A stretch of 64,000 bases of DNA, taken from positions 946 to 64,945 of IMG/VR virus record IMGVR_UViG_3300049211_000031. The stretch is one strand, 5' to 3'. The first letter of the stretch is position 1; each line of letters begins with the position of its first letter. Position numbers and translations under genes: made by a program. The notes below the pieces were generated by a model. The model was not told where the DNA came from, searched no databases, and was given only the letters and a program-made list of their open reading frames with translations. This DNA is from a virus. Its lineage: Duplodnaviria; Heunggongvirae; Uroviricota; Caudoviricetes. Positions 1-11,436 of this stretch are shown one piece after another.

Positions 1-107
1 GCACTATCGCCGCGCTAGATTTAAGGAGGGGAGGTGTTGTTACTGGGTACCCATACTAACACACTGAATAATAATTAGTTATAGGGTAGGGGGCATCAAA
101 TAATAAA

Positions 108-139
108 TTTGGCAATGTGGGGGCTATTTCGTATTTTTG
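108..139 (+). promoter_or_regulatory. Bacteroidota primary-sigma promoter (-33 TTTG / -7 TAnnTTTG)
   Basis: TTTG 108-111, TATTTTTG 132-139, 20-nt spacer; ATG at 145 follows. Confidence 0.8.
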
Positions 140-144
140 TGTAT

Positions 145-462
145 ATGTATAGAACACCAACAAAAAAAGAGCTTTATATAGGAATGCCCATTGAGTTTCG
201 GGTGCATGGAGAATATGATATGGAGGTATGTACATTTTCTAAGGAGTCTTATGAGAGTTATTTATTTAATGATGAATATACTGGTTGGAAGTGGGAAGAA
301 AGACTATTAGATGAAGAGTGGTTTTCCTATTTTAAGGAATGGGATGGAGATGATGAGAGCGTTCTTCGGGGTAAGTGGAGAGGTCTTCCTACATTGGGAT
401 TTATAAGAGTGAAACAAACACCTAAAACTATAAATAATGAAACGTCCGAAACAACAGTGTGA
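145..462 (+). CDS. hypothetical phage protein (start moved from 109 to ATG 145, downstream of promoter)
   Basis: ORF track 109..462; upstream part overlaps the promoter. Confidence 0.75.
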   Translation: MYRTPTKKELYIGMPIEFRVHGEYDMEVCTFSKESYESYLFNDEYTGWKWEERLLDEEWFSYFKEWDGDDESVLRGKWRGLPTLGFIRVKQTPKTINNETSETTV

Positions 463-601
463 TTTGAAGATTAAGAAGATCGCTCCTCACACGTATTATA
501 TTAATGGGGCAGGATATAGAACAATGAGAGATATTCTAGCCTTTAACAAAGCAATAAACAAAGCAAATGATAAAAATAGATTTACGCCCAGATGTAATTG
601 A
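437..601 (+). CDS. small hypothetical protein, 54 aa (MKRPKQQCDLKIKK...), absent from ORF track
   Basis: ATG 437 to TGA 601, fills the gap between neighbouring ORFs. Confidence 0.55.
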   Translation: MKRPKQQCDLKIKKIAPHTYYINGAGYRTMRDILAFNKAINKANDKNRFTPRCN

Positions 602-833
602 TTTTATTAGTAGCACAGGGCATGTTTCTCGTCCAAAAGGGGTGACACACATGTGCGCCAATCCCTACTGGTACAAGTATATAGGAGGAAACGAATGGCA
701 AGTGCTCTCAGTAGATGATATTCCTTCAGATATAAGAGCAGAGTATATTAAGTTCCTAGAGGATTTTCTAAAACAGTTAAAAGACGGATTTCATGAACCA
801 GCAGCAACAATCATCATCAACGGAAATAATTAA
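567..833 (+). CDS. hypothetical protein
   Basis: ORF in co-oriented operon. Confidence 0.7.
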   Translation: MIKIDLRPDVIDFISSTGHVSRPKGVTHMCANPYWYKYIGGNEWQVLSVDDIPSDIRAEYIKFLEDFLKQLKDGFHEPAATIIINGNN

Positions 834-1347
834 ACATCCCCTAGTGGAAATGTGGGGAACAAAAGAGAGCCTAGAAGAATATGAGAAGTTCTGTAAAGAA
901 CTAATGGATAAGTGGGAAAATGAGTTTTGGTGGCCCAACAGAGAAGAACTCTGGAATAAGATGGTGGAGGAAGATCGGAAAAAGAGAGAAGTGCTCGATG
1001 TGGAGAAGCGAGAGTATGATCTGATTCCCTGCACATGCGGCTGTCATAACGATCCTAATGTAATGCATATTATAGCTTGTTGTGATAATGGCTATCGAAA
1101 AATCAGGAGAGCGCCAAAGAACGAGCTCAATGATTTCGTGGACGGAGCAGTAGATGAGTGGAATAGAATATGGAAGGATACACCATTTAAAGCTGTGAAA
1201 AAAGAGGACGCGCCCAACCACACCTCTACTGACCCCCACCAGTGGATGACTGAGAAAGAAATATATGAGGAAAAATTTAGGGCAAACAGCCCACATTGTT
1301 CCTACTGTGATTATACACCTTGTAGGTGTTCAAAAGAAAAAGAATGA
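793..1347 (+). CDS. hypothetical protein with Cys/His clusters (CTCGCH...CC; HCSYC...C.C), possible Zn binding
   Basis: ORF track; Cys motifs in translation. Confidence 0.7.
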   Translation: MNQQQQSSSTEIIKHPLVEMWGTKESLEEYEKFCKELMDKWENEFWWPNREELWNKMVEEDRKKREVLDVEKREYDLIPCTCGCHNDPNVMHIIACCDNGYRKIRRAPKNELNDFVDGAVDEWNRIWKDTPFKAVKKEDAPNHTSTDPHQWMTEKEIYEEKFRANSPHCSYCDYTPCRCSKEKE

Positions 1348-1535
1348 AAGAAAAAGATAAATTAAGAGTGTATTTAGAGATGGATAGAGATAATGGACAA
1401 AGAATAGCTATTTACAGAAACCTTGAAATAGAGGAAGTATTAGAAAACCCAGAGATTATTAAGAAAGTAGTGGAAGAGTGTGCTGATAGTCTTAGATGGT
1501 ACAATATAATAAATAAGATGAAAGATGGAAAATAA
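1344..1535 (+). CDS. hypothetical protein (ATG 1344)
   Basis: ATGA overlap with previous stop. Confidence 0.7.
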   Translation: MKEKDKLRVYLEMDRDNGQRIAIYRNLEIEEVLENPEIIKKVVEECADSLRWYNIINKMKDGK

Positions 1536-1932
1536 ATATCACTATCCTACTAAAGAGGAAATAAGAGTAGGATGGGAGGGAGAAATTAATTGGAATTTAG
1601 GATATGAGAACACTTATGAACCCATCACTATTCTCTACCCAGATGAAGAAGCAAAAGATGGATGGAATTGTAATATAGATGATGTTCTTTCCTTAGCTAT
1701 ATGGGATGGATGTGCTGAAATACGTGCTCCTTTCTTATCAGGAGAGCAACTCTTAGCAGAAGGATGGACGTATAGGAAACTATTTGATTCTTATGAGAAA
1801 GGAAATTGGACTATTTCTATAGAAGAAGATCATCGTATAAATCTTCGCTGTGGAGAGTTCTCAGGACTTTATTTCATATGTCCAGATATTAATACATTCA
1901 GAACAATATGTAAATTAGTAGGAATAAAATAA
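1525..1932 (+). CDS. hypothetical protein
   Basis: ORF in operon, overlapping start/stop. Confidence 0.75.
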   Translation: MENKYHYPTKEEIRVGWEGEINWNLGYENTYEPITILYPDEEAKDGWNCNIDDVLSLAIWDGCAEIRAPFLSGEQLLAEGWTYRKLFDSYEKGNWTISIEEDHRINLRCGEFSGLYFICPDINTFRTICKLVGIK

Positions 1933-2723
1933 TGAATTACACGATATACATACAGAGTTTAAATAATTTTCCAATAGCTGATTGGGCTGTCTCTGCTTAT
2001 ATGGGGTTTAAAGAGAAACAGGCTAATATAGTATTCTTTGAGGATATTAATGAAGTACCTGTAAGCACCACAAATATAGTAGTAGCTTTTATAGAGGATA
2101 CAAACAAGTATTTCCAAAAACTAGGACTTCCTAAAAAGAAAGCTTTAAATGTTCCAGAAAAGTTGGAAGGATGGGCTAAGAGAAAAATAGCACGAGCTAC
2201 AATGAAGGACTTAAGAGGAGACAAAGTGAGATTTCCCATCTTTGTAAAGCCTGATAGGTATGCTAAGGAGTTTGTAGCAGGAGTAGTGAAAGATAGGAAG
2301 TCTGTAGATTTCTATTTTAAGGATATTCCTGATGACACGCCAATTATGCTCTCACAAGTAATAGAATTCGAATCAGAGTGGAGAGTATATGTAATTAATG
2401 GAGAAATTAAGGGAATTAAGCACTATTTGGGTGATCTCTGGAGTATGCCTGAAAGAGGAGTGGTTCAAGATACTATTAAACACTATCAACAAATAGGAGC
2501 ACCTGCCGCTTATGGAATAGATTTTGGTGTAGCTCTAAGAGAAACTATGGAAATAGGTATGGGTCATCCTAGAAGAAAAGAAACTCAACTTATTGAGATA
2601 AATGATGGATGGAGCTTAGGAAATTATGGGCTGAATGATGTCACTTATTCCACCTTATTAGCTACAAGGTGGAGGGAAATAATGAAAGATGTAAAACATG
2701 GAGCCTATATTCGGAAAAAATAA
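1932..2723 (+). CDS. ATP-grasp domain protein, R2K clade (DUF4343-like)
   Basis: FPIFVKP, SEWRVYV, AYGIDFG, LIEINDGWSLGNYG motifs typical of this ATP-grasp clade. Confidence 0.8.
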   Translation: MNYTIYIQSLNNFPIADWAVSAYMGFKEKQANIVFFEDINEVPVSTTNIVVAFIEDTNKYFQKLGLPKKKALNVPEKLEGWAKRKIARATMKDLRGDKVRFPIFVKPDRYAKEFVAGVVKDRKSVDFYFKDIPDDTPIMLSQVIEFESEWRVYVINGEIKGIKHYLGDLWSMPERGVVQDTIKHYQQIGAPAAYGIDFGVALRETMEIGMGHPRRKETQLIEINDGWSLGNYGLNDVTYSTLLATRWREIMKDVKHGAYIRKK

Positions 2724-2892
2724 GGACGTATACTATCCAGGAGACATAGTCTCAGATGATAGAGGAGTATATAGAATAGATACTTATGATTTTAAACGTC
2801 GGACTTGTATTCTTACTAATATTGTAACAGGACAAATCATCACTCTTACAGAAGAATGTGTAAAAGATATGTTACACCCAGAAAGGAAGTAA
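2698..2892 (+). CDS. hypothetical protein
   Basis: ORF ending at terminator. Confidence 0.65.
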   Translation: MEPIFGKNKDVYYPGDIVSDDRGVYRIDTYDFKRRTCILTNIVTGQIITLTEECVKDMLHPERK

Positions 2893-2909
2893 AAAATACT
2901 TCCTTTTTT
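2883..2909 (+). terminator. intrinsic terminator
   Basis: AAGGAAGTA-aaaaa-TACTTCCTT followed by T run. Confidence 0.8.
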
Positions 2910-2910
2910 C

Positions 2911-2942
2911 TTTGGTATTCTCCATAAATCAGTGTATATTTG
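2911..2942 (+). promoter_or_regulatory. Bacteroidota primary-sigma promoter
   Basis: TTTG 2911-2914, TATATTTG 2935-2942, 20-nt spacer. Confidence 0.85.
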
Positions 2943-2953
2943 TAAAAAACAAG

Positions 2954-3157
2954 ATGAGCAACAAGAATCTATATCAATGGTTATTTCACTTTAACCCCTA
3001 CAAGGAAATTTGGTTTGCCTTTAAAAGAGAAGACTATGTGAAGTTCTTCAATGGTGACACCGAAATTAAGACAGTAGGCTCAAAGAATATTAATACATTA
3101 ATTGAGTTAGTAGAAAAAACAGATGGTGATGTTTCAAAATTATTAAATTTAGAATAA
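2954..3157 (+). CDS. hypothetical protein (MSNKNLYQWLFHFNPY...)
   Basis: ATG 2954 downstream of promoter, within ORF 2912..3157. Confidence 0.75.
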   Translation: MSNKNLYQWLFHFNPYKEIWFAFKREDYVKFFNGDTEIKTVGSKNINTLIELVEKTDGDVSKLLNLE

Positions 3158-3160
3158 ATA

Positions 3161-3544
3161 ATGGCAAAAGTACAGATGTTAGCTAGATGGTCAGAGTTGT
3201 CAGTGAAACAAAATAATATTGACCAAGGAGAACAAGAACTTAAAAGACTCTTAGGAAACGATAATGAACAAAGCCTATATAGGACAGAAATTGTTCATGA
3301 ATATGGTCCAGTAGTGTTTGAAATGGATGATGTCCATCACTATAACAGAGCTAAGGAAAAAGGACATACAACAATTCATTTTAAGAATGGAGACAGTTTA
3401 GTGCTTAAAATTCCATACATTGAATTCTTAGAAATAGATGTTCAATATTCAGGAAAAACTATTAATGACTTCATTCCTATAGACTATATAGACCCTGAGG
3501 ATGAGGAAATTGATGAGGAAACAGATTCAGATTTAGAACTCTAA
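3161..3544 (+). CDS. hypothetical protein, acidic C-terminus
   Basis: ORF track. Confidence 0.8.
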   Translation: MAKVQMLARWSELSVKQNNIDQGEQELKRLLGNDNEQSLYRTEIVHEYGPVVFEMDDVHHYNRAKEKGHTTIHFKNGDSLVLKIPYIEFLEIDVQYSGKTINDFIPIDYIDPEDEEIDEETDSDLEL

Positions 3545-3552
3545 AAGAAAAA

Positions 3553-3584
3553 TTTGGAAAATTGAAAAAGTTTTCCTACCTTTG
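3553..3584 (+). promoter_or_regulatory. promoter of tRNA array 1
   Basis: TTTG 3553-3556, TACCTTTG 3577-3584, 20-nt spacer. Confidence 0.9.
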
Positions 3585-3611
3585 TGTTCAAATAAAGAAT
3601 AAAAAAGATTT

Positions 3612-3701
3612 ATGCAGTCAACAATCATTATAGTCGGTAGAGGAGCGGAGCGCACAATAAAATGCGGCTCAGGCGTTTCTATGTACTATGATGATATTTA
3701 A
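3612..3701 (+). CDS. attenuator leader peptide 1, MQSTIIIVGRGAERTIKCGSGVSMYYDDI
   Basis: 29-aa ORF between promoter and terminator; codons 5-17 are I,I,I,V,G,R,G,A,E,R,T,I,K, matching array 1 tRNAs. Confidence 0.85.
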   Translation: MQSTIIIVGRGAERTIKCGSGVSMYYDDI

Positions 3702-3762
3702 TTTTCCTTTAGTTTGTCATAACATCGAAGCTCCTGAGCCTTAAAAAAGCTTGGGAGTTTTT
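3624..3762 (+). promoter_or_regulatory. transcription attenuator 1 (protector, antiterminator, terminator)
   Basis: 1:2 ATCATTATAGT(3624-34)/ACTATGATGAT(3685-95) plus inner stems; 2:3 GGCTCAGGCGTTTC(3666-79)/GAAGCTCCTGAGCC(3727-40); 3:4 AAGCTCCTGAGC(3728-39)/GCTTGGGAGTTT(3749-60) plus T run. Confidence 0.85.
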
Positions 3763-3771
3763 GTTTTATAC

Positions 3772-3842
3772 ACTCTCGAAGCTTTAAAGTGAAGCTATAG
3801 GCTTTTAACCTATAGAACACGGGGCAGTACCGTGCGGGAGTA
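3772..3842 (+). tRNA. trnK: tRNA-Lys(UUU)
   Basis: cloverleaf; ATAGG-CT-TTT-AA-CCTAT; T-loop GGCAGTA. Confidence 0.9.
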
Positions 3843-3848
3843 CAATAA

Positions 3849-3921
3849 GGACACATAGTTTAATGGAAAAACATCACGCTACGAACGTGAAGAAGTAAAG
3901 GTTCGACCCCTTTTGTGTCCT
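3849..3921 (+). tRNA. trnR: tRNA-Arg(ACG)
   Basis: TCACG-CT-ACG-AA-CGTGA; acceptor GGACACA/TGTGTCC. Confidence 0.92.
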
Positions 3922-3922
3922 C

Positions 3923-3994
3923 AGAGCTATAGTTAAATGGATATAACAGCATCCTTCTAAGTTGCTATTCTGTGTTCGATTCACAGTAGCTCTA
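3923..3994 (+). tRNA. trnR: tRNA-Arg(UCU)
   Basis: GCATC-CT-TCT-AA-GTTGC; acceptor AGAGCTA/TAGCTCT. Confidence 0.9.
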
Positions 3995-4000
3995 CAACTT

Positions 4001-4071
4001 GCGTTACAAGGATTTCGATAGTCTACCTGACTTCCAATCAGGGGGGCGGGGTTTGACTCCCCGGTAGCGCA
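4001..4071 (+). tRNA. trnG: tRNA-Gly(UCC)
   Basis: CCTGA-CT-TCC-AA-TCAGG. Confidence 0.9.
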
Positions 4072-4076
4072 CAATA

Positions 4077-4148
4077 GCCCTTGTCGTCTAGTAGTTAGGA
4101 CGCTGCCCTTTCAAGGCGGAGAAGACGGAGCGTAACCGTTCGAGGGTA
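4077..4148 (+). tRNA. trnE: tRNA-Glu(UUC)
   Basis: CTGCC-CT-TTC-AA-GGCGG; T-loop AGCGTAA. Confidence 0.9.
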
Positions 4149-4153
4149 CATAT

Positions 4154-4226
4154 CGGCTCGTAGTTTAACTGGTTAAAACTTCCGGCTCATAACCGGATGT
4201 TCTCGGTTCAAGCCCGAGTGAGCCAA
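4154..4226 (+). tRNA. tRNA with CAU anticodon (Met, fMet or Ile2 unresolved)
   Basis: TCCGG-CT-CAT-AA-CCGGA; C1:A72 mismatch; only two G-C pairs at 30-31. Confidence 0.85.
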
Positions 4227-4231
4227 CAAAT

Positions 4232-4303
4232 TGCCTTATAGTAGAATGGTCAGCACGCATCCCTGATAAGGATGAAATCTTGGTTCAATTCCAAGTGAGG
4301 CAA
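4232..4303 (+). tRNA. trnI: tRNA-Ile(GAU)
   Basis: CATCC-CT-GAT-AA-GGATG. Confidence 0.92.
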
Positions 4304-4307
4304 CTAT

Positions 4308-4380
4308 AGGAAGTTCGTATAGTGGTTTAATACATCATCCTTACAAGATGAATTCCTGAGTTCGATTCTCAGACTTCCTA
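4308..4380 (+). tRNA. trnV: tRNA-Val(UAC)
   Basis: TCATC-CT-TAC-AA-GATGA; acceptor AGGAAGT/ACTTCCT. Confidence 0.92.
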
Positions 4381-4385
4381 CTTCT

Positions 4386-4459
4386 GGGGGTACATGTACC
4401 AAGGCTGGCGAGTTTGCCTTGCAAGCAGACTGTGGTCGTTTCGATTACGACTATCTCCA
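4386..4459 (+). tRNA. trnA: tRNA-Ala(UGC)
   Basis: TTTGC-CT-TGC-AA-GCAGA; G3:U70 alanine identity pair present. Confidence 0.9.
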
Positions 4460-4465
4460 CCTGAA

Positions 4466-4497
4466 TTTGGTAGATTCAAATATTTACCATATCTTTG
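4466..4497 (+). promoter_or_regulatory. promoter of tRNA array 2
   Basis: TTTG 4466-4469, TATCTTTG 4490-4497, 20-nt spacer. Confidence 0.9.
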
Positions 4498-4501
4498 TAT
4501 T

Positions 4502-4585
4502 ATGAAATTCGTGAAACAATATCTACTCTCCTATTTATCTAGCCTCAGTTATCCTGTGGCAGGGGAGTATATTGTCGGGTTTTAA
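4502..4585 (+). CDS. attenuator leader peptide 2, MKFVKQYLLSYLSSLSYPVAGEYIVGF (probably leaderless mRNA)
   Basis: 27-aa ORF; codons 7-17 YLLSYLSSLSY are exclusively Leu/Ser/Tyr, matching array 2. Confidence 0.88.
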   Translation: MKFVKQYLLSYLSSLSYPVAGEYIVGF

Positions 4586-4639
4586 CTATCTTAGGAATTT
4601 ACCGGGCTCCCCTGCTACTAAATACAGCAGGGGATTTTT
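4517..4639 (+). promoter_or_regulatory. transcription attenuator 2
   Basis: 1:2 CAATAT..ACTCTCCT(4517-32)/AGGGGAGTATATTG(4561-74); 2:3 GTGGCAGGGGAGT(4556-68)/GCTCCCCTGCTAC(4606-18); 3:4 TCCCCTGCT(4608-16)/AGCAGGGGA(4626-34) plus TTTTT. Confidence 0.88.
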
Positions 4640-4647
4640 ATTTATAT

Positions 4648-4721
4648 ACCTCCGTGGGCAAATAGAAAAGTCGCTAGTCTTAGAAACTAGAGTTTTGCGA
4701 GTGCAAGTCTCGCCGGGGGTA
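4648..4721 (+). tRNA. trnL: tRNA-Leu(UAG), short variable loop
   Basis: CTAGT-CT-TAG-AA-ACTAG; acceptor ACCTCCG/CGGGGGT, A73. Confidence 0.88.
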
Positions 4722-4724
4722 CAC

Positions 4725-4798
4725 AGCGGTGTAGGCTAATTGGTAACGCCGTCAGACTTAAAATCTGAAGTTTGTGAGTTCAAATCTCACCATCGCTA
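4725..4798 (+). tRNA. trnL: tRNA-Leu(UAA), short variable loop
   Basis: TCAGA-CT-TAA-AA-TCTGA. Confidence 0.9.
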
Positions 4799-4803
4799 CA
4801 TAA

Positions 4804-4886
4804 GGAGAGTAAATCAGCATGAAGCTGGGGCGTCCTGCTAAGACGTTCGTACTATTGAGTATGTGGATCAGGGCCACTGCTCTCCG
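4804..4886 (+). tRNA. trnS: tRNA-Ser(GCU)
   Basis: CGTC-CT-GCT-AA-GACG; long variable arm; G73. Confidence 0.85.
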
Positions 4887-4891
4887 CATTT

Positions 4892-4976
4892 GGAGGATTG
4901 CCAGAGCTGGTAATGGCGCTGTCTTGAAAACAGAGGGCGGGTAATACCGACAGGAGTTCGATTCTTCTATCCTCCG
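4892..4976 (+). tRNA. trnS: tRNA-Ser(UGA)
   Basis: CTGT-CT-TGA-AA-ACAG; long variable arm; G73. Confidence 0.92.
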
Positions 4977-4983
4977 CTTTATT

Positions 4984-5066
4984 GGGAGTTTATACCGTAG
5001 GGGTAGCGGGCCTGACTGTAAATCAGGTGGCTTTGGTCTCGGGTGGTTCGACGCCATCAGCTCCCA
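4984..5066 (+). tRNA. trnY: tRNA-Tyr(GUA)
   Basis: CTGA-CT-GTA-AA-TCAG; extended variable arm. Confidence 0.92.
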
Positions 5067-5079
5067 CTTTAAAATAAAA

Positions 5080-5111
5080 TTTGGAAAATTCAAAAATTTG
5101 TTTTACCTTTG
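5080..5111 (+). promoter_or_regulatory. promoter of tRNA array 3
   Basis: TTTG 5080-5083, TACCTTTG 5104-5111, 20-nt spacer; AAATTTGGAAAATT shared with promoter 1. Confidence 0.9.
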
Positions 5112-5115
5112 CACT

Positions 5116-5193
5116 ATGATTAACAACTGGCATAATACATTTACCTTCACTCCCAATCAACCTGATCGGGCTAGGGTGTATTGTGCTAACTAA
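5116..5193 (+). CDS. attenuator leader peptide 3, MINNWHNTFTFTPNQPDRARVYCAN (probably leaderless mRNA)
   Basis: 25-aa ORF; codons 3-17 use only N,W,H,T,F,P,Q,D, the eight specificities of array 3. Confidence 0.9.
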   Translation: MINNWHNTFTFTPNQPDRARVYCAN

Positions 5194-5246
5194 GGATTTT
5201 CTTACGTTTTTCCATACACCCTCAGTCAAAAAGCTGAGGGTTTTTT
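5131..5246 (+). promoter_or_regulatory. transcription attenuator 3
   Basis: 1:2 CATAATACAT(5131-40)/GTGTATTGTG(5176-85) plus inner CCT/AGG and CCC/GGG; 2:3 AGGGTGTAT(5173-81)/ATACACCCT(5214-22); 3:4 CCCTCAGT(5219-26)/GCTGAGGG(5233-40) plus TTTTTT. Confidence 0.88.
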
Positions 5247-5254
5247 ATTTTAAT

Positions 5255-5329
5255 CGAGTAGTGTCGGGAATGGTAATTCCGTCTTCCCTTGGAAGGAAGG
5301 GCATGCTAGTTCGAGCCTAGTCTACTCGA
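5255..5329 (+). tRNA. trnP: tRNA-Pro(UGG)
   Basis: CTTCC-CT-TGG-AA-GGAAG; C1-G72, A73. Confidence 0.9.
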
Positions 5330-5336
5330 CTTTAAC

Positions 5337-5407
5337 GGTGTATTGGTGAAATGGTATCATACTTGTCTGTCTAACAAGTGTCCTCGGATCGTAACCGTGA
5401 TACACCG
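5337..5407 (+). tRNA. trnD: tRNA-Asp(GUC)
   Basis: CTTGT-CT-GTC-TA-ACAAG; G73; unusual U37. Confidence 0.88.
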
Positions 5408-5412
5408 CAATT

Positions 5413-5483
5413 GGGAAATTAGCTCAAAAGTAGAGCGAGAAGCTGTTAACTTCAGGACGGTGGAGCGTTACCATCATTTCCCG
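5413..5483 (+). tRNA. trnN: tRNA-Asn(GUU)
   Basis: GAAG-CT-GTT-AA-CTTC; G73. Confidence 0.9.
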
Positions 5484-5493
5484 CTTAACACAC

Positions 5494-5594
5494 TAATGGG
5501 TGGTGGAATTTGGCAGACGCACCTCCTCGTCTCGGTGGCGCAGATAAAGGAAATAAATAACCTCTGCATGTACGTTCAAATCGTACCCCATTAG
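5494..5594 (+). ncRNA. atypical tRNA-like RNA (GUC at the anticodon position, C33/U37, ~31-nt variable arm)
   Basis: acceptor TAATGGG/CCCATTA+G73; Leu-type D arm; CCTCC-TC-GTC-TC-GGTGG; T arm GTACG-TTCAAAT-CGTAC. Confidence 0.7.
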
Positions 5595-5600
5595 CTTAAC

Positions 5601-5674
5601 GCCTGCTGTAGCTCAACTGGTAGAGCAATCCCCTTGTAAGGGAAAGGTTGTCGATTCGATTTCGACCTCAGGCT
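5601..5674 (+). tRNA. trnT: tRNA-Thr(UGU), irregular acceptor stem
   Basis: TCCC-CT-TGT-AA-GGGA; 8-nt 5' strand GCCTGCTG against 7-nt CTCAGGC. Confidence 0.8.
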
Positions 5675-5726
5675 CACATAAAGAAGTTAAGGATGCGCAC
5701 GTAGAAATATGCCTTAATTTCTGGAA

Positions 5727-5797
5727 GGGGAGATAACTCAATGGTAGAGTAGAGGCCTGAAGAGCCTTAAATGCAAGTTCGACTCTTGCTCTCCCCA
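5727..5797 (+). tRNA. trnF: tRNA-Phe(GAA)
   Basis: AGGC-CT-GAA-GA-GCCT; acceptor GGGGAGA/TCTCCCC. Confidence 0.92.
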
Positions 5798-5804
5798 CTT
5801 ATAA

Positions 5805-5875
5805 TGCCTTGTAGTAGAAAAGTAACACGTCGGGTTTTGACCCCGAAGAAGATTGGGCGGTACAATCCAAGGCAT
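5805..5875 (+). tRNA. trnQ: tRNA-Gln(UUG)
   Basis: TCGGG-TT-TTG-AC-CCCGA; U1-A72. Confidence 0.88.
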
Positions 5876-5877
5876 CT

Positions 5878-5948
5878 GTGACTGAAGCTTTTGAGTAAAG
5901 TGCCTCTCTGTGAAAGAGGAGAATGGAGTGCGAGTCTCCACTGTCACC
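5878..5948 (+). tRNA. trnH: tRNA-His(GUG), no encoded G-1
   Basis: CCTCT-CT-GTG-AA-AGAGG; C73; base at -1 is T. Confidence 0.88.
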
Positions 5949-5952
5949 TTAT

Positions 5953-6025
5953 ACGGGATTCGTATAGTGGTTATTATCTCGGTCTCCAAAACCGTAGGAC
6001 AGATGTTCGAATCGTCTATCCCGTG
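5953..6025 (+). tRNA. trnW: tRNA-Trp(CCA)
   Basis: TCGGT-CT-CCA-AA-ACCG; G73. Confidence 0.9.
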
Positions 6026-6027
6026 CT

Positions 6028-6053
6028 AAAGCTCCTTAAAAGGGAGCTTTTTT
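6028..6053 (+). terminator. intrinsic terminator closing the tRNA region
   Basis: AAAGCTCCT-taaaa-GGGAGCTTT plus T run. Confidence 0.85.
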
Positions 6054-6082
6054 CATTTATTTTAAAAATAGTTTGTAAAATT

Positions 6083-6114
6083 CTTGACTTTGCCAAAAAT
6101 TTTCTGTAGCTTTG
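6083..6114 (+). promoter_or_regulatory. Bacteroidota-type promoter with no substantial ORF downstream
   Basis: CTTG 6083-6086, TAGCTTTG 6107-6114, 20-nt spacer. Confidence 0.6.
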
Positions 6115-6234
6115 TCAGCGCGGAGTCGCACTAACAAACCAACAGAGTGTCTGTTGAGCGCGAGAGTCGCAGAGAGTTTAGAATATGGGTAGAGAAGAGG
6201 TGTTAAGATAAGATTTAAGAAAATTACCAAATTA

Positions 6235-6266
6235 TTTGGAAAATTACAATAATAGTTCTATCTTTG
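6235..6266 (+). promoter_or_regulatory. promoter of the pre-terminase operon
   Basis: TTTG 6235-6238, TATCTTTG 6259-6266, 20-nt spacer. Confidence 0.85.
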
Positions 6267-6281
6267 TTAAGAATTTGAAAA

Positions 6282-6623
6282 ATGCAACTAGTAAAGATAC
6301 GAAAGAAAACCAGTAGTAAAGTAGAACAAGCTAAGACAATGATTAGCATTTTCTGTTTACTAACAAATATCAAACTGTCAGATACAGAGTTGACAGTACT
6401 TGCATATTTCATGGTGTATAAAATAAATAGAAAAACAAAAGATCTTATTCTAAGTGCAGGTATTCTAAAATCAGACGACAGTTTAAAGAACACTCTGTCT
6501 AAATTAAAGAAATTTGGAATGCTTGTTAGGAATATAGACAGTAAGGAGTATTCTCTAAGAAAGGAATTAGACTTTACACTCACTCCTGCAATGGGCGTTC
6601 TTATAAAAATTGATAATGCTTAA
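6282..6623 (+). CDS. putative winged-helix DNA-binding protein
   Basis: basic, helix-helix-beta hairpin pattern; family inferred by eye. Confidence 0.6.
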   Translation: MQLVKIRKKTSSKVEQAKTMISIFCLLTNIKLSDTELTVLAYFMVYKINRKTKDLILSAGILKSDDSLKNTLSKLKKFGMLVRNIDSKEYSLRKELDFTLTPAMGVLIKIDNA

Positions 6624-7138
6624 TGAAGGATATTAAGATAGTTTCAAGATTGGTAGCAAGAGAGTTTAACTATGATCCAGAGCTAACAGAGGATGTGAAT
6701 GACTTCTTCTGGAAAGAAACAAGAAAGATGCTATCTTCTATGGAATACACTTCAGTTTCAATCAAATGTCTTTGTACTCTCACTGTCTCTAAGAGAAAAG
6801 TAGATTACATAATAAAAAAGTTGATAGGAAAGATAAGGAATATTCGTAAGTCTACAAGATATAAAGAAAGTACAACAGCCCTCTTATTAGAAGTGAACTA
6901 TGACAAGCTAAGAAAAGCTTTAAAACAAAGAAATATATTAGCTAAACAATACTATGAAAATTACACTAAAAGGATTAGCAGAGTACGTGAAGCTTCTTCC
7001 AGCAATAATAGCGAACTCGGACAAGATATTAGAGGCAACATGGAATCAGGTGAAGAACGAGTTGGGGATGCTGAAAGAAGAGGAACAACAGGAAATAGTG
7101 AGGAGACGATTAATATGTGCAACATGCCCTTTCAATAG
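6623..7138 (+). CDS. putative HU/IHF-like DNA-binding protein with C-terminal tail overlapping the next gene
   Basis: N-terminal helical, basic region; crAss-like gene order. Confidence 0.55.
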   Translation: MKDIKIVSRLVAREFNYDPELTEDVNDFFWKETRKMLSSMEYTSVSIKCLCTLTVSKRKVDYIIKKLIGKIRNIRKSTRYKESTTALLLEVNYDKLRKALKQRNILAKQYYENYTKRISRVREASSSNNSELGQDIRGNMESGEERVGDAERRGTTGNSEETINMCNMPFQ

Positions 7139-7412
7139 CTCAAACGCTGTAAAGGATGGATATAAAACAAATAGGATTGATGAGCATTGTATAATGTGTG
7201 GATGTACAATAACAAGAAAAACAAACTCTCTTTCTTCAGATTGTGGAATATCTTGTTGTAATCCCGATTCAGAATGTAATTGTGCTAAAGAAAACGTTAA
7301 AAAATTTAATACAGAGAATAATATAGTAATTGAACCCAAATGGTTCAAATTTAAAAATCAAGAAGATGAGCAACAAACAAAGAATTCAGACGAAGCAACA
7401 GATATTCCATAA
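6954..7412 (+). CDS. Cys-rich putative Zn-binding protein
   Basis: RRRLICATCPF, CIMCGC, DCGISCC motifs. Confidence 0.75.
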   Translation: MKITLKGLAEYVKLLPAIIANSDKILEATWNQVKNELGMLKEEEQQEIVRRRLICATCPFNSSNAVKDGYKTNRIDEHCIMCGCTITRKTNSLSSDCGISCCNPDSECNCAKENVKKFNTENNIVIEPKWFKFKNQEDEQQTKNSDEATDIP

Positions 7413-7590
7413 CTTTGTGGAGATAGTAGAGTTGTTCCCTCAATACACCATAGCTCAACATATGGTACATGTATTACGCCCTCAAACAGGATGTTACCAG
7501 TGGACTGATGAAGAGCTTCTAAGAAAGTTTGAGAAATATAGGGATGAGCTTGAAACTGAATTAGTAGATAATATTAAAGAAGACGAGTAA
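7366..7590 (+). CDS. hypothetical protein (MSNKQRIQ...)
   Basis: ATG 7366 within ORF 7330..7590. Confidence 0.7.
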   Translation: MSNKQRIQTKQQIFHNFVEIVELFPQYTIAQHMVHVLRPQTGCYQWTDEELLRKFEKYRDELETELVDNIKEDE

Positions 7591-7763
7591 TGTTTCTAGC
7601 ATTCTTAGAATACTTTCCAAGTTACTTTAAATTCTATAGATGGATGAGAGGAGGTAATTGGAAATACGTTGTGTGTAAATTCCCAGCACCAATAAATGGA
7701 TGTTGGGTACACAACTCAGAAGCACTCTGGTGGGAACTTATTGAGAAAGAAGAGCAATATTAA
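7590..7763 (+). CDS. small aromatic-rich protein, 57 aa, absent from ORF track
   Basis: TAATG coupling; MFLAFLEYFPSYFKFYRWMRGGNW... Confidence 0.65.
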   Translation: MFLAFLEYFPSYFKFYRWMRGGNWKYVVCKFPAPINGCWVHNSEALWWELIEKEEQY

Positions 7764-7766
7764 AAA

Positions 7767-7925
7767 ATGCTAACTAGTTTTAAATGGTTTAGAAAATTAT
7801 CTAAAGGTTCTTGGTATTTGTACAGAAGTACAGGGCAGCTTCCAGGACTTTTTGGATGCTGGTGGTCAAGAACTAAACATCCAGAGCATAGATATTATTA
7901 TCTCTTAAGAGAAGAACATTACTAA
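7767..7925 (+). CDS. small aromatic-rich protein, 52 aa, likely paralog of 7590-7763
   Basis: MLTSFKWFRKLSKGSWYLY...GCWW. Confidence 0.65.
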   Translation: MLTSFKWFRKLSKGSWYLYRSTGQLPGLFGCWWSRTKHPEHRYYYLLREEHY

Positions 7926-7929
7926 AAAT

Positions 7930-8003
7930 TGCGGGGTGGACTGGAGAGGTGCCAGCTCGGTCTCATAAGCCGGATAACGAGAGTTCGATTCTCTCTCCCG
8001 CAA
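7930..8003 (+). tRNA. trnM: tRNA-Met(CAU), initiator-like
   Basis: acceptor TGCGGGG/TCCCGCA+A73; CT-CAT-AA loop; resembles bacterial fMet tRNAs. Confidence 0.8.
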
Positions 8004-8005
8004 CT

Positions 8006-8203
8006 ATGAAAATAGAAGTAGCCTATAACCCTCTATTTGATTATAACGGTCCATTCATTGAGAATGGGTATACATCAACTTTTATAGATTTCAGTGAGTA
8101 TGCACAAACTAACAATACAAGTTCCTGTCTACCAGTTCAAGTGTGTGGTGATAATCGACAAGGATGTAGAGAGGAAAGCGAACTCCTTCATAAGGAGAAA
8201 TAA
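8006..8203 (+). CDS. possible hypothetical protein overlapping the next gene by 104 nt
   Basis: ATG directly after tRNA; large overlap makes it doubtful. Confidence 0.35.
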   Translation: MKIEVAYNPLFDYNGPFIENGYTSTFIDFSEYAQTNNTSSCLPVQVCGDNRQGCREESELLHKEK

Positions 8204-8513
8204 GTGGAATGAAGACCTTCTTATTAAGGATGGTGACCAAGTCCACGGGTATGCAATAAATCCCGGACTTGTACACACCTACTACATCTTCTACTCAGAA
8301 GAAAGTGTAACACCCAATATTATAACACATGAAGTGTCGCATTTAGTAGACTATGTAATGGGTGACAAAGGTATGGTGGACACAGAAACAAGAGCCTACC
8401 TATCTGGATTTATAAATGAAAAGATATTTGATTACGTATTAAAGAATAAACTACTTATTAATAAATGGCTGGTAAAAGAAAACCTCAACTTGACAGAAAA
8501 CCTTCAAAAGTAG
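8100..8513 (+). CDS. putative zincin-like metalloprotein (HExxH)
   Basis: ITHEVSHL...ETRAYL motif. Confidence 0.7.
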   Translation: MHKLTIQVPVYQFKCVVIIDKDVERKANSFIRRNKWNEDLLIKDGDQVHGYAINPGLVHTYYIFYSEESVTPNIITHEVSHLVDYVMGDKGMVDTETRAYLSGFINEKIFDYVLKNKLLINKWLVKENLNLTENLQK

Positions 8514-8647
8514 AATCTGACACTTGGAAGCTTTCTCCAAGACAAATATTAATTCAAAAGCTAAATATGCTTTTATATGCAGCTCAGATTAATAGAATTA
8601 GTGATGTAGAAGCTAATGAATTATTAAGAATACTTTCGCATATGTAA
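8465..8647 (+). CDS. hypothetical protein
   Basis: ORF ending just before tRNA-Cys. Confidence 0.5.
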   Translation: MAGKRKPQLDRKPSKVESDTWKLSPRQILIQKLNMLLYAAQINRISDVEANELLRILSHM

Positions 8648-8650
8648 TCT

Positions 8651-8720
8651 GCACAGTTTAGTCTTGGAGGCTATTGCGTCTGCAAAACGTTTGGAATCAG
8701 TTCGAATCTGATACTGTGCT
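8651..8720 (+). tRNA. trnC: tRNA-Cys(GCA)
   Basis: GCGT-CT-GCA-AA-ACGT; acceptor GCACAGT/ACTGTGC; U73; short D loop. Confidence 0.88.
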
Positions 8721-8733
8721 CACAAAAACCAAT

Positions 8734-9015
8734 ATGACTAAAGAACGCATATTTATTGTTGGTGATGAAACAAGGATTCTTCAAGAAGAGGTGAGTCTTA
8801 GGCCTTATAATCTCACTGATGCAGATATTATTCATGCAGCTACAGTAATGTCTATTGCTAGATTTATATGGGATTACGAAGCTCGCCTTCAGGATCCTTC
8901 CTTCTATGCAGATATCCCTACATTTGAAATCCCAGAATATCCTAAAAAAGAACCATCGTTCTTTGATAGATTAAAAAGAAAACTAACATGGCTAAGAAAG
9001 TTAATTCATATATAA
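8734..9015 (+). CDS. hypothetical protein (MTKERIF...)
   Basis: ATG 8734 downstream of tRNA-Cys, within ORF 8674..9015. Confidence 0.7.
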   Translation: MTKERIFIVGDETRILQEEVSLRPYNLTDADIIHAATVMSIARFIWDYEARLQDPSFYADIPTFEIPEYPKKEPSFFDRLKRKLTWLRKLIHI

Positions 9016-9311
9016 GTGTTGAACTTGACTGGGCTGAGAATCAGCTCCAGTCTTGGAGGGACTATGTAGATGCTAATCCACTTCATCTATTAGAGGATAG
9101 ATGGGGTAAGAAAGAGATGCCTAAAGGTGGACATACATGGGTAGTAACAGCAACAAAAGAACAGCAAATTAAAGCTGTACAAGAAACAATGGTGAAATAT
9201 CTTCAGCTTCTTGAAGTGGTAGATAAACTTAGAGAGAAAGAAGAAGCTAAGGCTGAAGCTAAAGGGGATGCTGGTATTCCCAATAGAATGAAAAATAAAG
9301 ATGGAAATTAG
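8988..9311 (+). CDS. putative terminase small subunit
   Basis: helical protein overlapping the start of TerL; positional inference. Confidence 0.55.
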   Translation: MAKKVNSYISVELDWAENQLQSWRDYVDANPLHLLEDRWGKKEMPKGGHTWVVTATKEQQIKAVQETMVKYLQLLEVVDKLREKEEAKAEAKGDAGIPNRMKNKDGN

Positions 9312-11361
9312 AACCACAGAGTTTTTTAGAAATTTTAAAAATCTTCCACCTCCAGGTACAAAAGAGTTTGATGATCTAGTTGATTGGGAACTCGATAAGT
9401 GTTTTGGAGGTATTAACATTGGTGGTGTTCACATTCCAGGAATTCTCTATTCCTATCTAAATCACTGGAATATCATTGTCGATACAAAGGATAAATATGG
9501 AAACATTATTCGTACACCCAAGCATCCAGATTTACGTGATAATGAATGGGAACGTGCAGAATACTATGAAAAAGCACGACTTGCCCAAAAGGGATATATT
9601 GAAGTTGGTCTTCGACAAGGTGGAAAGTCAGAGTGGGAAGCGGGGCATATTGGGCTTTCAGCGACGCTCTTCGAGAATAGTCAAAATGTTCTGGTATCTG
9701 GAAATGGTGCTGACTTACGTATTATCACCGAGAAGATTGATTTTGGATGGAAGCATATGTGGGAAGGACTCAAAATCCCAAAACTAGATAAGGATTGGCG
9801 CAGACCTACTCTAAGACTAGGATTTAAAGATAAGAAGAATGAAGACCATGTGTGGAGCTGGATAATGATTCGTAATGCTGAAGAAGGCTTGAATACAGAA
9901 GCTGCAGCGGGTACAACAGCTAAAGCAGCAGTATTTGATGAGATTGGTAAATATCCATTCTCTCCAGTATTTGAGGCTCTTAAACCAGCCCTCTTATCGG
10001 AATTTGGATGGCGTTGTGTACCAATGCTTGTAGGAACAGGCGGTGCCTTCGAAAAAGGTGAGAACGCTGAACGTGTATTCTATCATCCTAGAGCTAACAA
10101 CTTCCAAGAAATAATTGATCCAGAAACAGGTAAAGAAACAGGACTTTTTATGTCAGGTCTTTATAGACAAGACTGTAAATTCTGGTCAAATCTCTATGAG
10201 TATCTTCTATGTAAAGGATATGATAATATAGGAGATGAACTCAAAGACATCGCTATTAAGGTGTCTGACAAAGAGAAAGCTAGGCAAAAGATTGAAGAAG
10301 AGCGTCTTGCCAAGTCTAAAGACCCAGATAAAACGGAGTACTTAAAACTTATAATGTACTACCCTCTTAATCCTAAGGAGTGTTTCTTATCAGGATCAAC
10401 AAACCCGTTCCCTATACAAGCCGCTCAAGATCATTTAGAATTCTTAAGACATAATAATATTACAGGACGTTACGTAAGATTTCATAGAGATTTAAATGGA
10501 AAAGTATACCACAAATTTGCAGAAGACCATGACAGACCAATTAGTGAGTTCCCTACAAAGGGCAACCTGGGTAAAGATTGTCCCGTTGTTATATGGGAAG
10601 AACCAATATCCAATTCTCCAAGAGGTCTATACATCGCGGGGGCTGACCCTTATAATCAGTCCGTGTCTGCGTGGTCAGACTCTTTGGGAACCGTCTGCAT
10701 CTGGAAAAGACAAATAGATGTGGCAGGTGAAACTTATCAAGATCAGGTAGTAGCATCTCTAGCTTCAAGACCTCTTACAATGAATGAGTGGCACGAACAA
10801 GTGGAAATGTTATTAGAATATTACAATGCTGTGTGCTTCCCTGAAAATGAAGCTGGTACATTTATTCAACACTTTGAGCGTAAGAACAAAGGACATCTTC
10901 TAGCAGAAGGATTTAATATTGCTAAAGAGATTAATCCTAATACAAAAGCTACTGGTGGTGGACGTATTTATGGACTAGCAGCTACAGTGAAGAATATTGA
11001 CTTCTGTATGTCTTTAATGTTGGACTACTGTAAAGAGCTAATCCAAGTAGGTACTAATCCAGAAACAGGCGAACCTATTATGAGGCTCGGAATTACACGT
11101 ATTAAAGACCCAATGCTCTTAGAAGAGATTATTAAATATGATAATGAAGGTAACTTTGACCGCGTTGTAGCATTTAGACATGCTTTAGCATACGCTAGAC
11201 ACTTAGATAAGTACTATCCTATAGTAAATATTAAGGAACAACCAAAGGCTACAGAGTTTAAAAGGAACCCTTTTACATCTTCTCCATTCTCACCAGTTAT
11301 GGGAGGATTTACAAAATCAAATAGTCCTTTCCCCAAAATGCCTAAGAATGTTATACGATAA
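9301..11361 (+). CDS. terL: terminase large subunit
   Basis: Walker A-like RQGGKS, Walker B VFDE, nuclease YIAGADPY and NFDRV. Confidence 0.92.
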   Translation: MEIRTTEFFRNFKNLPPPGTKEFDDLVDWELDKCFGGINIGGVHIPGILYSYLNHWNIIVDTKDKYGNIIRTPKHPDLRDNEWERAEYYEKARLAQKGYIEVGLRQGGKSEWEAGHIGLSATLFENSQNVLVSGNGADLRIITEKIDFGWKHMWEGLKIPKLDKDWRRPTLRLGFKDKKNEDHVWSWIMIRNAEEGLNTEAAAGTTAKAAVFDEIGKYPFSPVFEALKPALLSEFGWRCVPMLVGTGGAFEKGENAERVFYHPRANNFQEIIDPETGKETGLFMSGLYRQDCKFWSNLYEYLLCKGYDNIGDELKDIAIKVSDKEKARQKIEEERLAKSKDPDKTEYLKLIMYYPLNPKECFLSGSTNPFPIQAAQDHLEFLRHNNITGRYVRFHRDLNGKVYHKFAEDHDRPISEFPTKGNLGKDCPVVIWEEPISNSPRGLYIAGADPYNQSVSAWSDSLGTVCIWKRQIDVAGETYQDQVVASLASRPLTMNEWHEQVEMLLEYYNAVCFPENEAGTFIQHFERKNKGHLLAEGFNIAKEINPNTKATGGGRIYGLAATVKNIDFCMSLMLDYCKELIQVGTNPETGEPIMRLGITRIKDPMLLEEIIKYDNEGNFDRVVAFRHALAYARHLDKYYPIVNIKEQPKATEFKRNPFTSSPFSPVMGGFTKSNSPFPKMPKNVIR

Positions 11362-11380
11362 CCATAATATGTTATTCCAG

Positions 11381-11419
11381 TTACACAAAAAAATAACCGA
11401 TAATAATTTCTTATATTTG
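11381..11419 (+). promoter_or_regulatory. variant promoter (TTAC-N27-TATATTTG, no -33 TTTG)
   Basis: TTAC 11381-84, TATATTTG 11412-19, upstream of portal. Confidence 0.55.
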
Positions 11420-11436
11420 CGGGTTTAAGACACAAT

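Follow-up and report, generated by a model that had tools for sequence, protein, structure and literature searches.

A probable leader-peptide attenuator naming eight amino acids ahead of the matching tRNA genes in a crAss-like phage

To our knowledge, leader-peptide attenuation of transcription is known for genes of amino-acid biosynthesis and for a few synthetase genes, and not for tRNA genes. Each of the leaders trpL, hisL, pheL and leuL responds to a single amino acid, whose synthesis it regulates by feedback, the absence of translation leading to termination and a stalled ribosome to read-through. Several amino acids are listed in the leaders of thrL (Thr and Ile) and ilvGMEDA (Ile, Leu and Val), which have helices 1:2, 2:3 and 3:4, a terminator and a stop codon by segment 2, and which regulate biosynthetic enzymes. 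Here, we analyzed a stretch of 64,000 nucleotides (hereafter the window) corresponding to bases 946-64945 of the 128,945-base IMG/VR virus record IMGVR_UViG_3300049211_000031, in which three units of the same design carry tRNA genes. We focused on unit 3, where a promoter, a short leader open reading frame (ORF) and an intrinsic terminator precede eight tRNA genes (Table 1). We consider it quite probable that unit 3 is a ribosome-mediated transcription attenuator controlling these genes, a reading in which translation of the leader, stalling, read-through and the trigger are inferred from the DNA sequence, and whose computed basis consists of the promoter motif, the conserved ORF, the match between codons and tRNAs, the alternative helices, the terminator and their co-evolution.

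The mechanism and geometry proposed for unit 3 are those of trpL, hisL, pheL and leuL, except that unit 3 would sense the decoding supply and make tRNA. The helices, the terminator and the position of the stop codon are also those of thrL and ilvGMEDA. However, these two leaders list two or three amino acids, whereas the phage leaders list eight or nine, usually with 1-4 codons each and without long runs of a single codon. Unit 3 further differs from them in being phage-borne, in its Bacteroidota setting, in its probably leaderless message and in the lack of sequence homology (no Rfam leader match). The nearest case within the translation apparatus is the pheM leader of E. coli, which attenuates pheST (phenylalanyl-tRNA synthetase), a gene acting on the sensed tRNA; there the product is a synthetase, a single amino acid is sensed and the system is cellular, whereas the products of unit 3 are tRNAs and the system is viral. 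T-box riboswitches, like unit 3, read tRNA status by codon-anticodon logic and act by transcription attenuation, but they bind uncharged tRNA directly, without a ribosome and through a single specifier codon, and their targets are synthetase and amino-acid genes. Clustered tRNA genes similar to those of unit 3 are present in T4, T5, vibriophages and other phages, where they are thought to offset codon-usage mismatch, host tRNA decay or anticodon nucleases. We know of no published demand-sensing control of phage tRNA arrays, and full-text literature searches recovered no publication on such control or on attenuation of tRNA genes. Attenuator-like leaders may precede tRNA-Phe genes in E. coli. 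The mechanism class is already known (trpL, hisL, the multivalent thrL and ilv leaders). The novel features are tRNAs as the regulated product, leaders that list eight or nine amino acids, the occurrence in a phage and in a Bacteroidota setting, and a start that is probably leaderless.

The leader ORF of unit 3 has counterparts at the equivalent position in 12 related genomes. As in leader-peptide attenuators, it is a short, codon-enriched ORF located between a promoter and the genes to be controlled. The initial annotation had claimed that its codons 3-17 use solely Asn, Trp, His, Thr, Phe, Pro, Gln and Asp, and that these are exactly the amino acids of the downstream tRNAs. Both claims were borne out, the second at the amino-acid level. 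ARAGORN called tRNAs Pro(tgg), Asp(gtc), Thr(tgt), Phe(gaa), His(gtg) and Trp(cca), as well as Asn(gtt) once its threshold was relaxed; the Rfam tRNA model recovered Asn (48.7 bits) and Gln (38.9 bits), the TTG anticodon of the latter being read by eye. A ninth, aberrant tRNA-like RNA within the array adds nothing to the set of amino acids, its loop carrying GTC. Of the codons in the six frames of the window, a fraction of 0.285 falls into the eight-amino-acid set, and nowhere in the six frames of the 64 kb does this set give a longer run than the 15 codons of the leader (the runner-up has 10). The earlier chance estimate of (19/61)^15 is of the right order.

Units 1 and 2 had also been described in the initial annotation, and we found in both a leader and a terminator, with runs drawn from their own sets. 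The unit 2 leader contains 11 consecutive Tyr, Leu or Ser codons, the longest such run in the window (runner-up 8), and the unit 1 leader reads IIIVGRGAER-T-IK ahead of its Lys, Arg, Arg, Gly, Glu, CAU, Ile, Val and Ala tRNAs. When the leaders of units 1-3 were read against the amino-acid set of another unit, no run exceeded 4 codons.

Table 1. Features of the three tRNA units in the window, leader peptides of unit 3 in related genomes and matching blocks in a distant phage record
Feature	Coordinates	Strand	Remarks
Unit 1	3553-4461	+	Promoter 3553-3584; leader 3612-3701 (MQSTIIIVGRGAERTIK...); terminator about 3721-3767; same design as unit 3
Unit 1 tRNAs			In order: Lys, Arg, Arg, Gly, Glu, CAU, Ile, Val, Ala
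Unit 2	4466-5067	+	Promoter 4466-4497; leader 4502-4585 (..YLLSYLSSLSY..); terminator 4608-4643; same design as unit 3
Unit 2 tRNAs			In order: Leu, Leu, doubtful Ser(gct), Ser(tga), Tyr
Unit 3 promoter, Bacteroidota type	5080-5111	+	TTTG, 20-nt spacer, TAccTTTG; motif scan
Unit 3 leader ORF	5116-5193	+	25 codons and TAA; peptide MINNWHNTFTFTPNQPDRARVYCAN
Sensor run	5122-5166	+	Codons 3-17, solely the eight amino acids of the set
Segment 1	5128-5140	+	5' arm of protector helix, within sensor run; minimum free energy fold
Segment 2	5172-5188	+	5176-5188 pairs with segment 1; 5172-5180 (AGGGTGTAT) pairs with segment 3
Segment 3	5214-5222	+	ATACACCCT; overlaps the terminator 5' arm by 5 nt
Intrinsic terminator	5218-5251	+	9-bp stem ACCCTCAGT/GCTGAGGGT, 6-nt loop, then TTTTTTATTTT
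tRNA-Pro(tgg)	5255-5330	+	
tRNA-Asp(gtc)	5337-5408	+	
tRNA-Asn(gtt)	5413-5483	+	
tRNA-like RNA	5494-5595	+	7-bp acceptor stem, canonical T arm, loop TCGTCTC, very long extra arm (~30 nt)
tRNA-Thr(tgt)	5601-5675	+	
tRNA-Phe(gaa)	5727-5798	+	
tRNA-Gln(ttg)	5805-5875	+	
tRNA-His(gtg)	5878-5948	+	
tRNA-Trp(cca)	5953-6026	+	
Intrinsic terminator closing unit 3	6028-6060	+	
Unit 3 leader peptide, L019			MINNWHNTFNTQNPNQPDCDRVCYV
Unit 3 leader peptide, L021			MILNTWHTTFFTFNPNQPDRGRGVLCLI
Unit 3 leader peptide, L001			MIQNWHNNTFNFQPDTIVGRGYIISR
Unit 3 leader peptide, G001			MINNWHNTFNNFTPDQQDLDEGTLCQNK
Unit 3 leader peptide, L022			MIKHWHNTFTFNTNQPDCVRGSIMLI
Unit 3 leader peptide, L026			MIKNTWHTNFTFNPNQPDTEGVCHIV
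Unit 3 leader peptide, L027			MITNWHNTPNNFTFNQPDGGGCVVS
Unit 3 leader peptide, L028			MIQNWHNNTFNFQPDTYVGRRSIMQ
Unit 3 leader peptide, L042			MIQKWHNTPNTFNTQDSWSGSRMLS
LR745206.1, codon-matched leader and terminator blocks	4290-4615 and 5255-5576		

For comparison, twelve related genomes with terminases 48-95% identical were collected through IMG/VR scans, protein search and contig look-ups. A BLAST search of the array against 50,697 GenBank phage records gave similarity at the tRNA level only and no relatives, and a DNA pattern derived from the leader matched two true relatives, together with five chance matches. Genomes whose terminase was 45-51% identical (L010-L013, L015, L029, L041) had no tRNA array near the terminase and were left out of the comparison.

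Within this comparison, the strongest evidence for attenuation is that leaders track their arrays through gain, loss and moves of tRNA genes. In L025, the array comprises Pro, Asn, Thr, Phe, Gln, His and Trp tRNAs without Asp, and Asp is the sole member of the set missing from the run NTWHNTPFTFQPQN. In L040, unit 1 has tRNAs Lys, Cys, Val, Arg(tct), Asn, Met, Gly, Glu, Asp, Ile, Ile and Ala, and unit 3 has Pro, Thr, Phe, Gln, His, Arg(acg) and Trp. The unit 1 leader of this genome, MNSRTVIDNIRNAEGCKKALVGNVC... (which includes ..VIDNIRNAEGCKKA..), has gained Asp, Asn and Cys and uses Arg solely as AGA, and the unit 3 run TRTHTQQFWFPT, that is T-R(CGT)-T-H-T-Q-Q-F-W-F-P-T, contains neither Asp nor Asn. 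Where both Arg tRNAs are in unit 1, the unit 1 leader carries both AGA and CGC. Pairing each unit 3 leader with its own array gave the lowest possible mismatch score (permutation p = 0.003).

All eight amino acids were present in 9/9 checked leaders that precede all eight tRNAs. More generally, the runs of the twelve relatives are drawn from the tRNA set of their own unit, the order of the residues drifting while the composition stays. At the run columns of unit 3, 20/26 alternative residues belonged to the set, against 0.29 expected for random non-synonymous change (P = 6e-7); the corresponding values were 6/7 against 0.09 in unit 2 and 20/24 against 0.46 in unit 1. Selection acts on the composition of the leader and not on its peptide sequence. 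Position and length of the ORF are conserved as well, as would be the case if the short ORFs were functional micro-proteins and the terminators merely ended small genes. We give almost no credence to this explanation, given that the peptide sequence is not conserved and that the tRNA genes past each terminator have no other promoter within their unit.

The ATG of unit 3 is located 4 nt past the -7 box of the promoter. The same gap was found in 11 of the 13 unit-3-type leaders read, that of L024 being 5 nt, while L022 was left out of the measurement. Since Bacteroides promoter geometry would put the transcription start at or beside the AUG at such a spacing, the unit 3 message is probably leaderless. 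There is no Shine-Dalgarno sequence, which would agree with the ORFs being untranslated, though this is usual in Bacteroidota. The terminators would then be plain terminators or processing signals fixing transcript ratios, and the amino-acid pattern a by-product of RNA constraint or of chance. This is very unlikely in view of the fit of three codon sets to three arrays, of the set-preserving substitutions and of the way in which leaders follow tRNA gain, loss and moves; moreover, a terminator between a promoter and its only genes would be senseless without a bypass.

The minimum free energy fold of 5105-5252 reached -39.7 kcal/mol (z = -4.5), a value that no shuffle equalled, and contained a 13-bp protector helix 1:2 (5128-5140 with 5176-5188) that coexists with the terminator at 5218-5241. 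The terminator stem is G+C-rich and followed by a T-run, 4 nt before tRNA-Pro. Part of segment 2, AGGGTGTAT (5172-5180), is the exact 9-nt reverse complement of segment 3, ATACACCCT (5214-5222). The initial annotation had predicted a protector stem with 5168-5185 and a pairing of 5170-81 with 5214-26, coordinates which were right within a few bases. The element thus has the anatomy of an attenuator, with an intrinsic terminator between the leader ORF and the tRNA genes, mutually exclusive helices 1:2, 2:3 and 3:4, segment 1 lying within the regulatory codons, and a stop codon (TAA, 5191-5193, 3 nt past segment 2) placed so that a terminating ribosome would mask segment 2.

A cmscan search of positions 1-12000 at E <= 1 returned tRNAs and weak chance matches only, with no Rfam leader, T-box (RF00230) or riboswitch. 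The unit 3 element is therefore not a member of the known Rfam leader families (Trp, His, Thr, Leu, Phe and others), though it would work alike, nor is it a T-box riboswitch by the same threshold. Direct binding of tRNAs by the leader RNA in a T-box-like manner, without a ribosome, would likewise give codons matching the tRNAs, the run being a row of specifier codons that pair with anticodons. The absence of any T-box or other riboswitch family in these 12 kb is at odds with such binding, as is the helix 1:2, which pairs much of the run and would hide the specifier codons. In addition, the ATG, the frame and the stop codon are conserved, the stop codon lying at a similar distance, ~25 to 40 nt, upstream of the terminator, and in a three-genome alignment the indel in the run is a whole codon. 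There is accordingly only a slim chance that the tRNAs are read in this way.

In the first 11 genomes, a terminator was found before the first tRNA after 29/29 leaders (26 by script and 3 by eye), and the three leaders of L040 fold in like manner. The terminator stems vary among genomes and segment 2 varies along with them. As the MAFFT alignment of 11 unit 3 leaders was poor in its 3' half, we replaced pair counts by an alignment-free test comparing the duplexes formed within a genome with those formed after swapping partners between genomes. The 2:3 duplexes had a mean of -19.6 kcal/mol within their own genome versus -14.2 kcal/mol when swapped, and the 1:2 duplexes -23.2 versus -17.6 kcal/mol; in both cases 0/20,000 permutations reached the observed value. 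Both helices thus pair better within than between genomes, which answers the covariation check that had been suggested for this locus. Leaders conserving neither composition nor pairing had been named as the outcome that would refute the initial reading, and the twelve relatives gave the opposite result.

We modeled the switch by masking, codon by codon, the 28 nt covered by a ribosome and computing the equilibrium probability of the terminator stem. Without a ribosome, this probability was 0.85, 0.96 and 0.97 for units 1, 2 and 3, respectively; the lowest values with a stall in the run were 0.00, 0.00 and 0.18, and with a ribosome at the stop codon the values were 0.83, 0.95 and 0.97. Such switch behavior was seen in 0/120 dinucleotide-preserving shuffles of the upstream sequence for each of the three units. 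A second measure, the sequestration of the terminator 5' arm on truncated transcripts, was too noisy and was not used.

Under attenuation, the host RNA polymerase would initiate at the Bacteroidota-type promoter and the transcript would begin at or just before the AUG, the probable leaderless start allowing immediate ribosome loading. If no ribosome were loaded, helix 1:2 would form, the 3:4 terminator would fold and transcription would stop before tRNA-Pro. If the 15-codon run were read fast, the ribosome at the stop codon would cover segment 2 and the 3:4 terminator would again fold. A shortage of charged tRNA would instead stall the ribosome in the run, so that segment 1 would be covered, 2:3 would pair and the eight tRNA genes would be transcribed. 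The outcome would be a negative feedback supplying the tRNA block on demand, and units 1 and 2 would do likewise for their own sets.

Several observations weigh against this reading. In the equilibrium model, the unit 3 terminator was opened only by stalls at codons 3-11, and stalls at Thr12 to Asp17 left it closed with any footprint length used. Since the Pro, Gln and Asp codons occur only in this late stretch of the window leader, the simple geometry fails for 3/8 amino acids. The earlier proposal that a single short stretch serves peptide composition and two RNA folds simultaneously holds for the 5' two thirds of the run and fails for Pro13 to Asp17, which lie outside segment 1. Little or no equilibrium switch was obtained for unit 3 of G001, L028 and L027 and for unit 2 of L001 and L022; these relatives call for a kinetic argument. 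Since the antiterminator forms before segment 4 is transcribed, a kinetic trap may still operate in them and for late-codon stalls. The correspondence between codons and tRNAs is also imperfect. In L024, with tRNAs Pro, Arg(gcg), Phe, His and Trp, 5/14 leader codons are out of the set. Besides Arg, Phe, Trp, His and Pro, this leader contains Leu, Ser and Thr, and the CGA that it uses for Arg should not be read by the GCG anticodon. In L014, a leader of the Ser/Leu/Tyr type precedes Pro, Val and Gly tRNAs without any match, and Asn or Thr occurs in some unit 1 leaders. At the level of codon boxes, the ACC/ACT and CCC/CCT codons require U34 tRNAs that decode all four codons of the box. Finally, host tRNAs decode the same codons and the sensor would be blind to the difference between phage and host tRNA. 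All in all, we found that the alternatives fit the data less well than attenuation.

Two further observations concern these relatives. The L014 leader-like ORF (6229-6365, in a genome with a 46% identical terminase), MNTFLRPSLSLYSQHLYAGQGNSV, is accompanied by a terminator and a 2:3-type complement. Both Gln(ctg) and Gln(ttg) tRNAs are encoded in L001, whose leader has CAG as well as CAA, and the window has Gln(ttg) and CAA only; we dropped covariation of Gln at the codon level, as L019 and L028 use CAG with only Gln(ttg).

As to what the switch would respond to, we tentatively propose that the three attenuators and the 20-amino-acid tRNA set form a phage controller of decoding capacity, triggered by host tRNA loss in infection, a possibility that we rate well below attenuation itself. 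Host tRNA would be lost through turnover or anticodon-nuclease defence, and each block would be switched on only when its own codons became slow. The same switch could answer to another signal, amino-acid starvation or translation stress acting through charging, and adjust the timing or amount of tRNA output to cellular conditions. Classical attenuators such as trp and his answer to charged tRNA whatever limits its supply, the anatomy fits both signals, and sequence cannot separate tRNA abundance from charging. On the other hand, extra tRNA is no cure for amino-acid shortage, and the one-to-one bookkeeping between leader codons and tRNA genes, including in L040 the split of Arg AGA and CGT and the move of Asp, Asn and Cys, makes a charging signal improbable in our view. 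Because the leader codons match the tRNA genes of their own unit one-to-one, the regulated product would be the measured quantity.

With host tRNA loss as the trigger or not, the ribosome in such an attenuator would serve as a meter of decoding speed whose output is the limiting tRNA, a direct feedback on tRNA supply, and the phage would have three loops of this kind, with up to nine amino acids listed in each. If true, this would account for the way in which phages with large tRNA arrays are spared the production of unneeded tRNAs. The trigger of each unit would offer a way to test what phage tRNAs are for, a matter of long debate (codon bias, host tRNA decay or anti-defence), and the leaders would be usable as compact, programmable sensors of how available chosen tRNAs are.

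In the relatives, the major capsid protein matches the Pfam family Crass_capsid and its gene adjoins those of the portal and of a 686-aa terminase; we therefore assign the source to an environmental crAss-like phage. Relatives of the terminase with ~52% identity are present in Chitinophaga genomes. The Bacteroidota promoter motif TTTG-N18-21-TAnnTTTG was found 12 times in the window by motif scan, against 2.2 expected, and for this reason the host is most likely a member of Bacteroidota. The tRNAs of the window (3772-8721) cover all 20 amino acids, through the three units and separate Met and Cys tRNAs. The latter two (at 7930 and 8651) lie among protein genes, outside any attenuated unit.

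In unit 1, the leader has three consecutive Ile codons (ATC ATT ATA, 3624-3632). Since ATA is used and is kept in most relatives, the tRNA called Met(cat) at 4154-4227 may be a lysidine-type tRNA-Ile2. In unit 2, the site of the tRNA-Ser(gct) of the relatives (4805-4890) retains the acceptor stem and the CCTGCTAAG anticodon loop, with a non-canonical T loop (ATCAGGG), and was called neither by ARAGORN nor by Rfam. It may be a decaying tRNA-Ser(gct) copy, yet the unit 2 leader still has AGC and AGT codons.

The units of some relatives are interrupted by other genes. In L022, a gene for an HNH-type endonuclease with its own promoter (5285-5629) lies between the unit 3 attenuator and tRNA-Pro. 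L026 carries an HNH_2 gene (6443-6943) and a CBM_6/polysaccharide-lyase gene (2463-3719), each with its own promoter, the second of which splits unit 1, and in L040 a small ORF with its own promoter is located inside unit 1 (about 2555-2890). In L028, two small ORFs, one encoding a hydrophobic 37-aa peptide, lie between the unit 2 promoter and its leader (5318-5489), so that this leader is internal to the transcript and not leaderless. L025 has, just upstream of its single remaining unit, a promoter followed by a terminator without ORF or tRNAs (6451-6545), which may be the remnant of the attenuator of a lost unit.

The tRNA-like RNA within unit 3 has counterparts in L001 (6290-6390) and, on the reverse strand, in L018 (G001; 8525-8620 in G001 orientation), and is absent from L022, L026, L024 and L025. 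A DNA pattern derived from it matched only two relatives, the same as those found with the leader pattern. Between the window and G001, we observed compensatory changes in the anticodon-type stem (CCTCC/GGTGG versus CCGGA/TCCGG) and in the extra-arm stem (GCAGA/TCTGC versus GCGGA/TCCGC). The loop is TCGTCTC in the window, TTGTCTA in G001 and TTTTCTC in L001, with GTC, GTC and TTC, respectively, at positions 34-36 and U37 next in each case. Although structured and conserved, this RNA is unlikely to act as a normal decoder. ARAGORN calls of this region in intron mode, as Leu(caa) or Tyr(ata) with an 'intron', were inconsistent and not credible.

The design may be widespread, because it recurs in LR745206.1 (L030), a 635-kb GenBank record of an uncultured phage that BLAST links to the array only through tRNA genes. 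In one block of this record, a promoter, a leader containing ..ASYESYYEEG.. and a terminator precede Tyr and Glu tRNAs; in another, a leader containing ..ISIAVIGNGAGAI.. and a terminator are followed by Ile, Gly, Met, Gly and Ala tRNAs.

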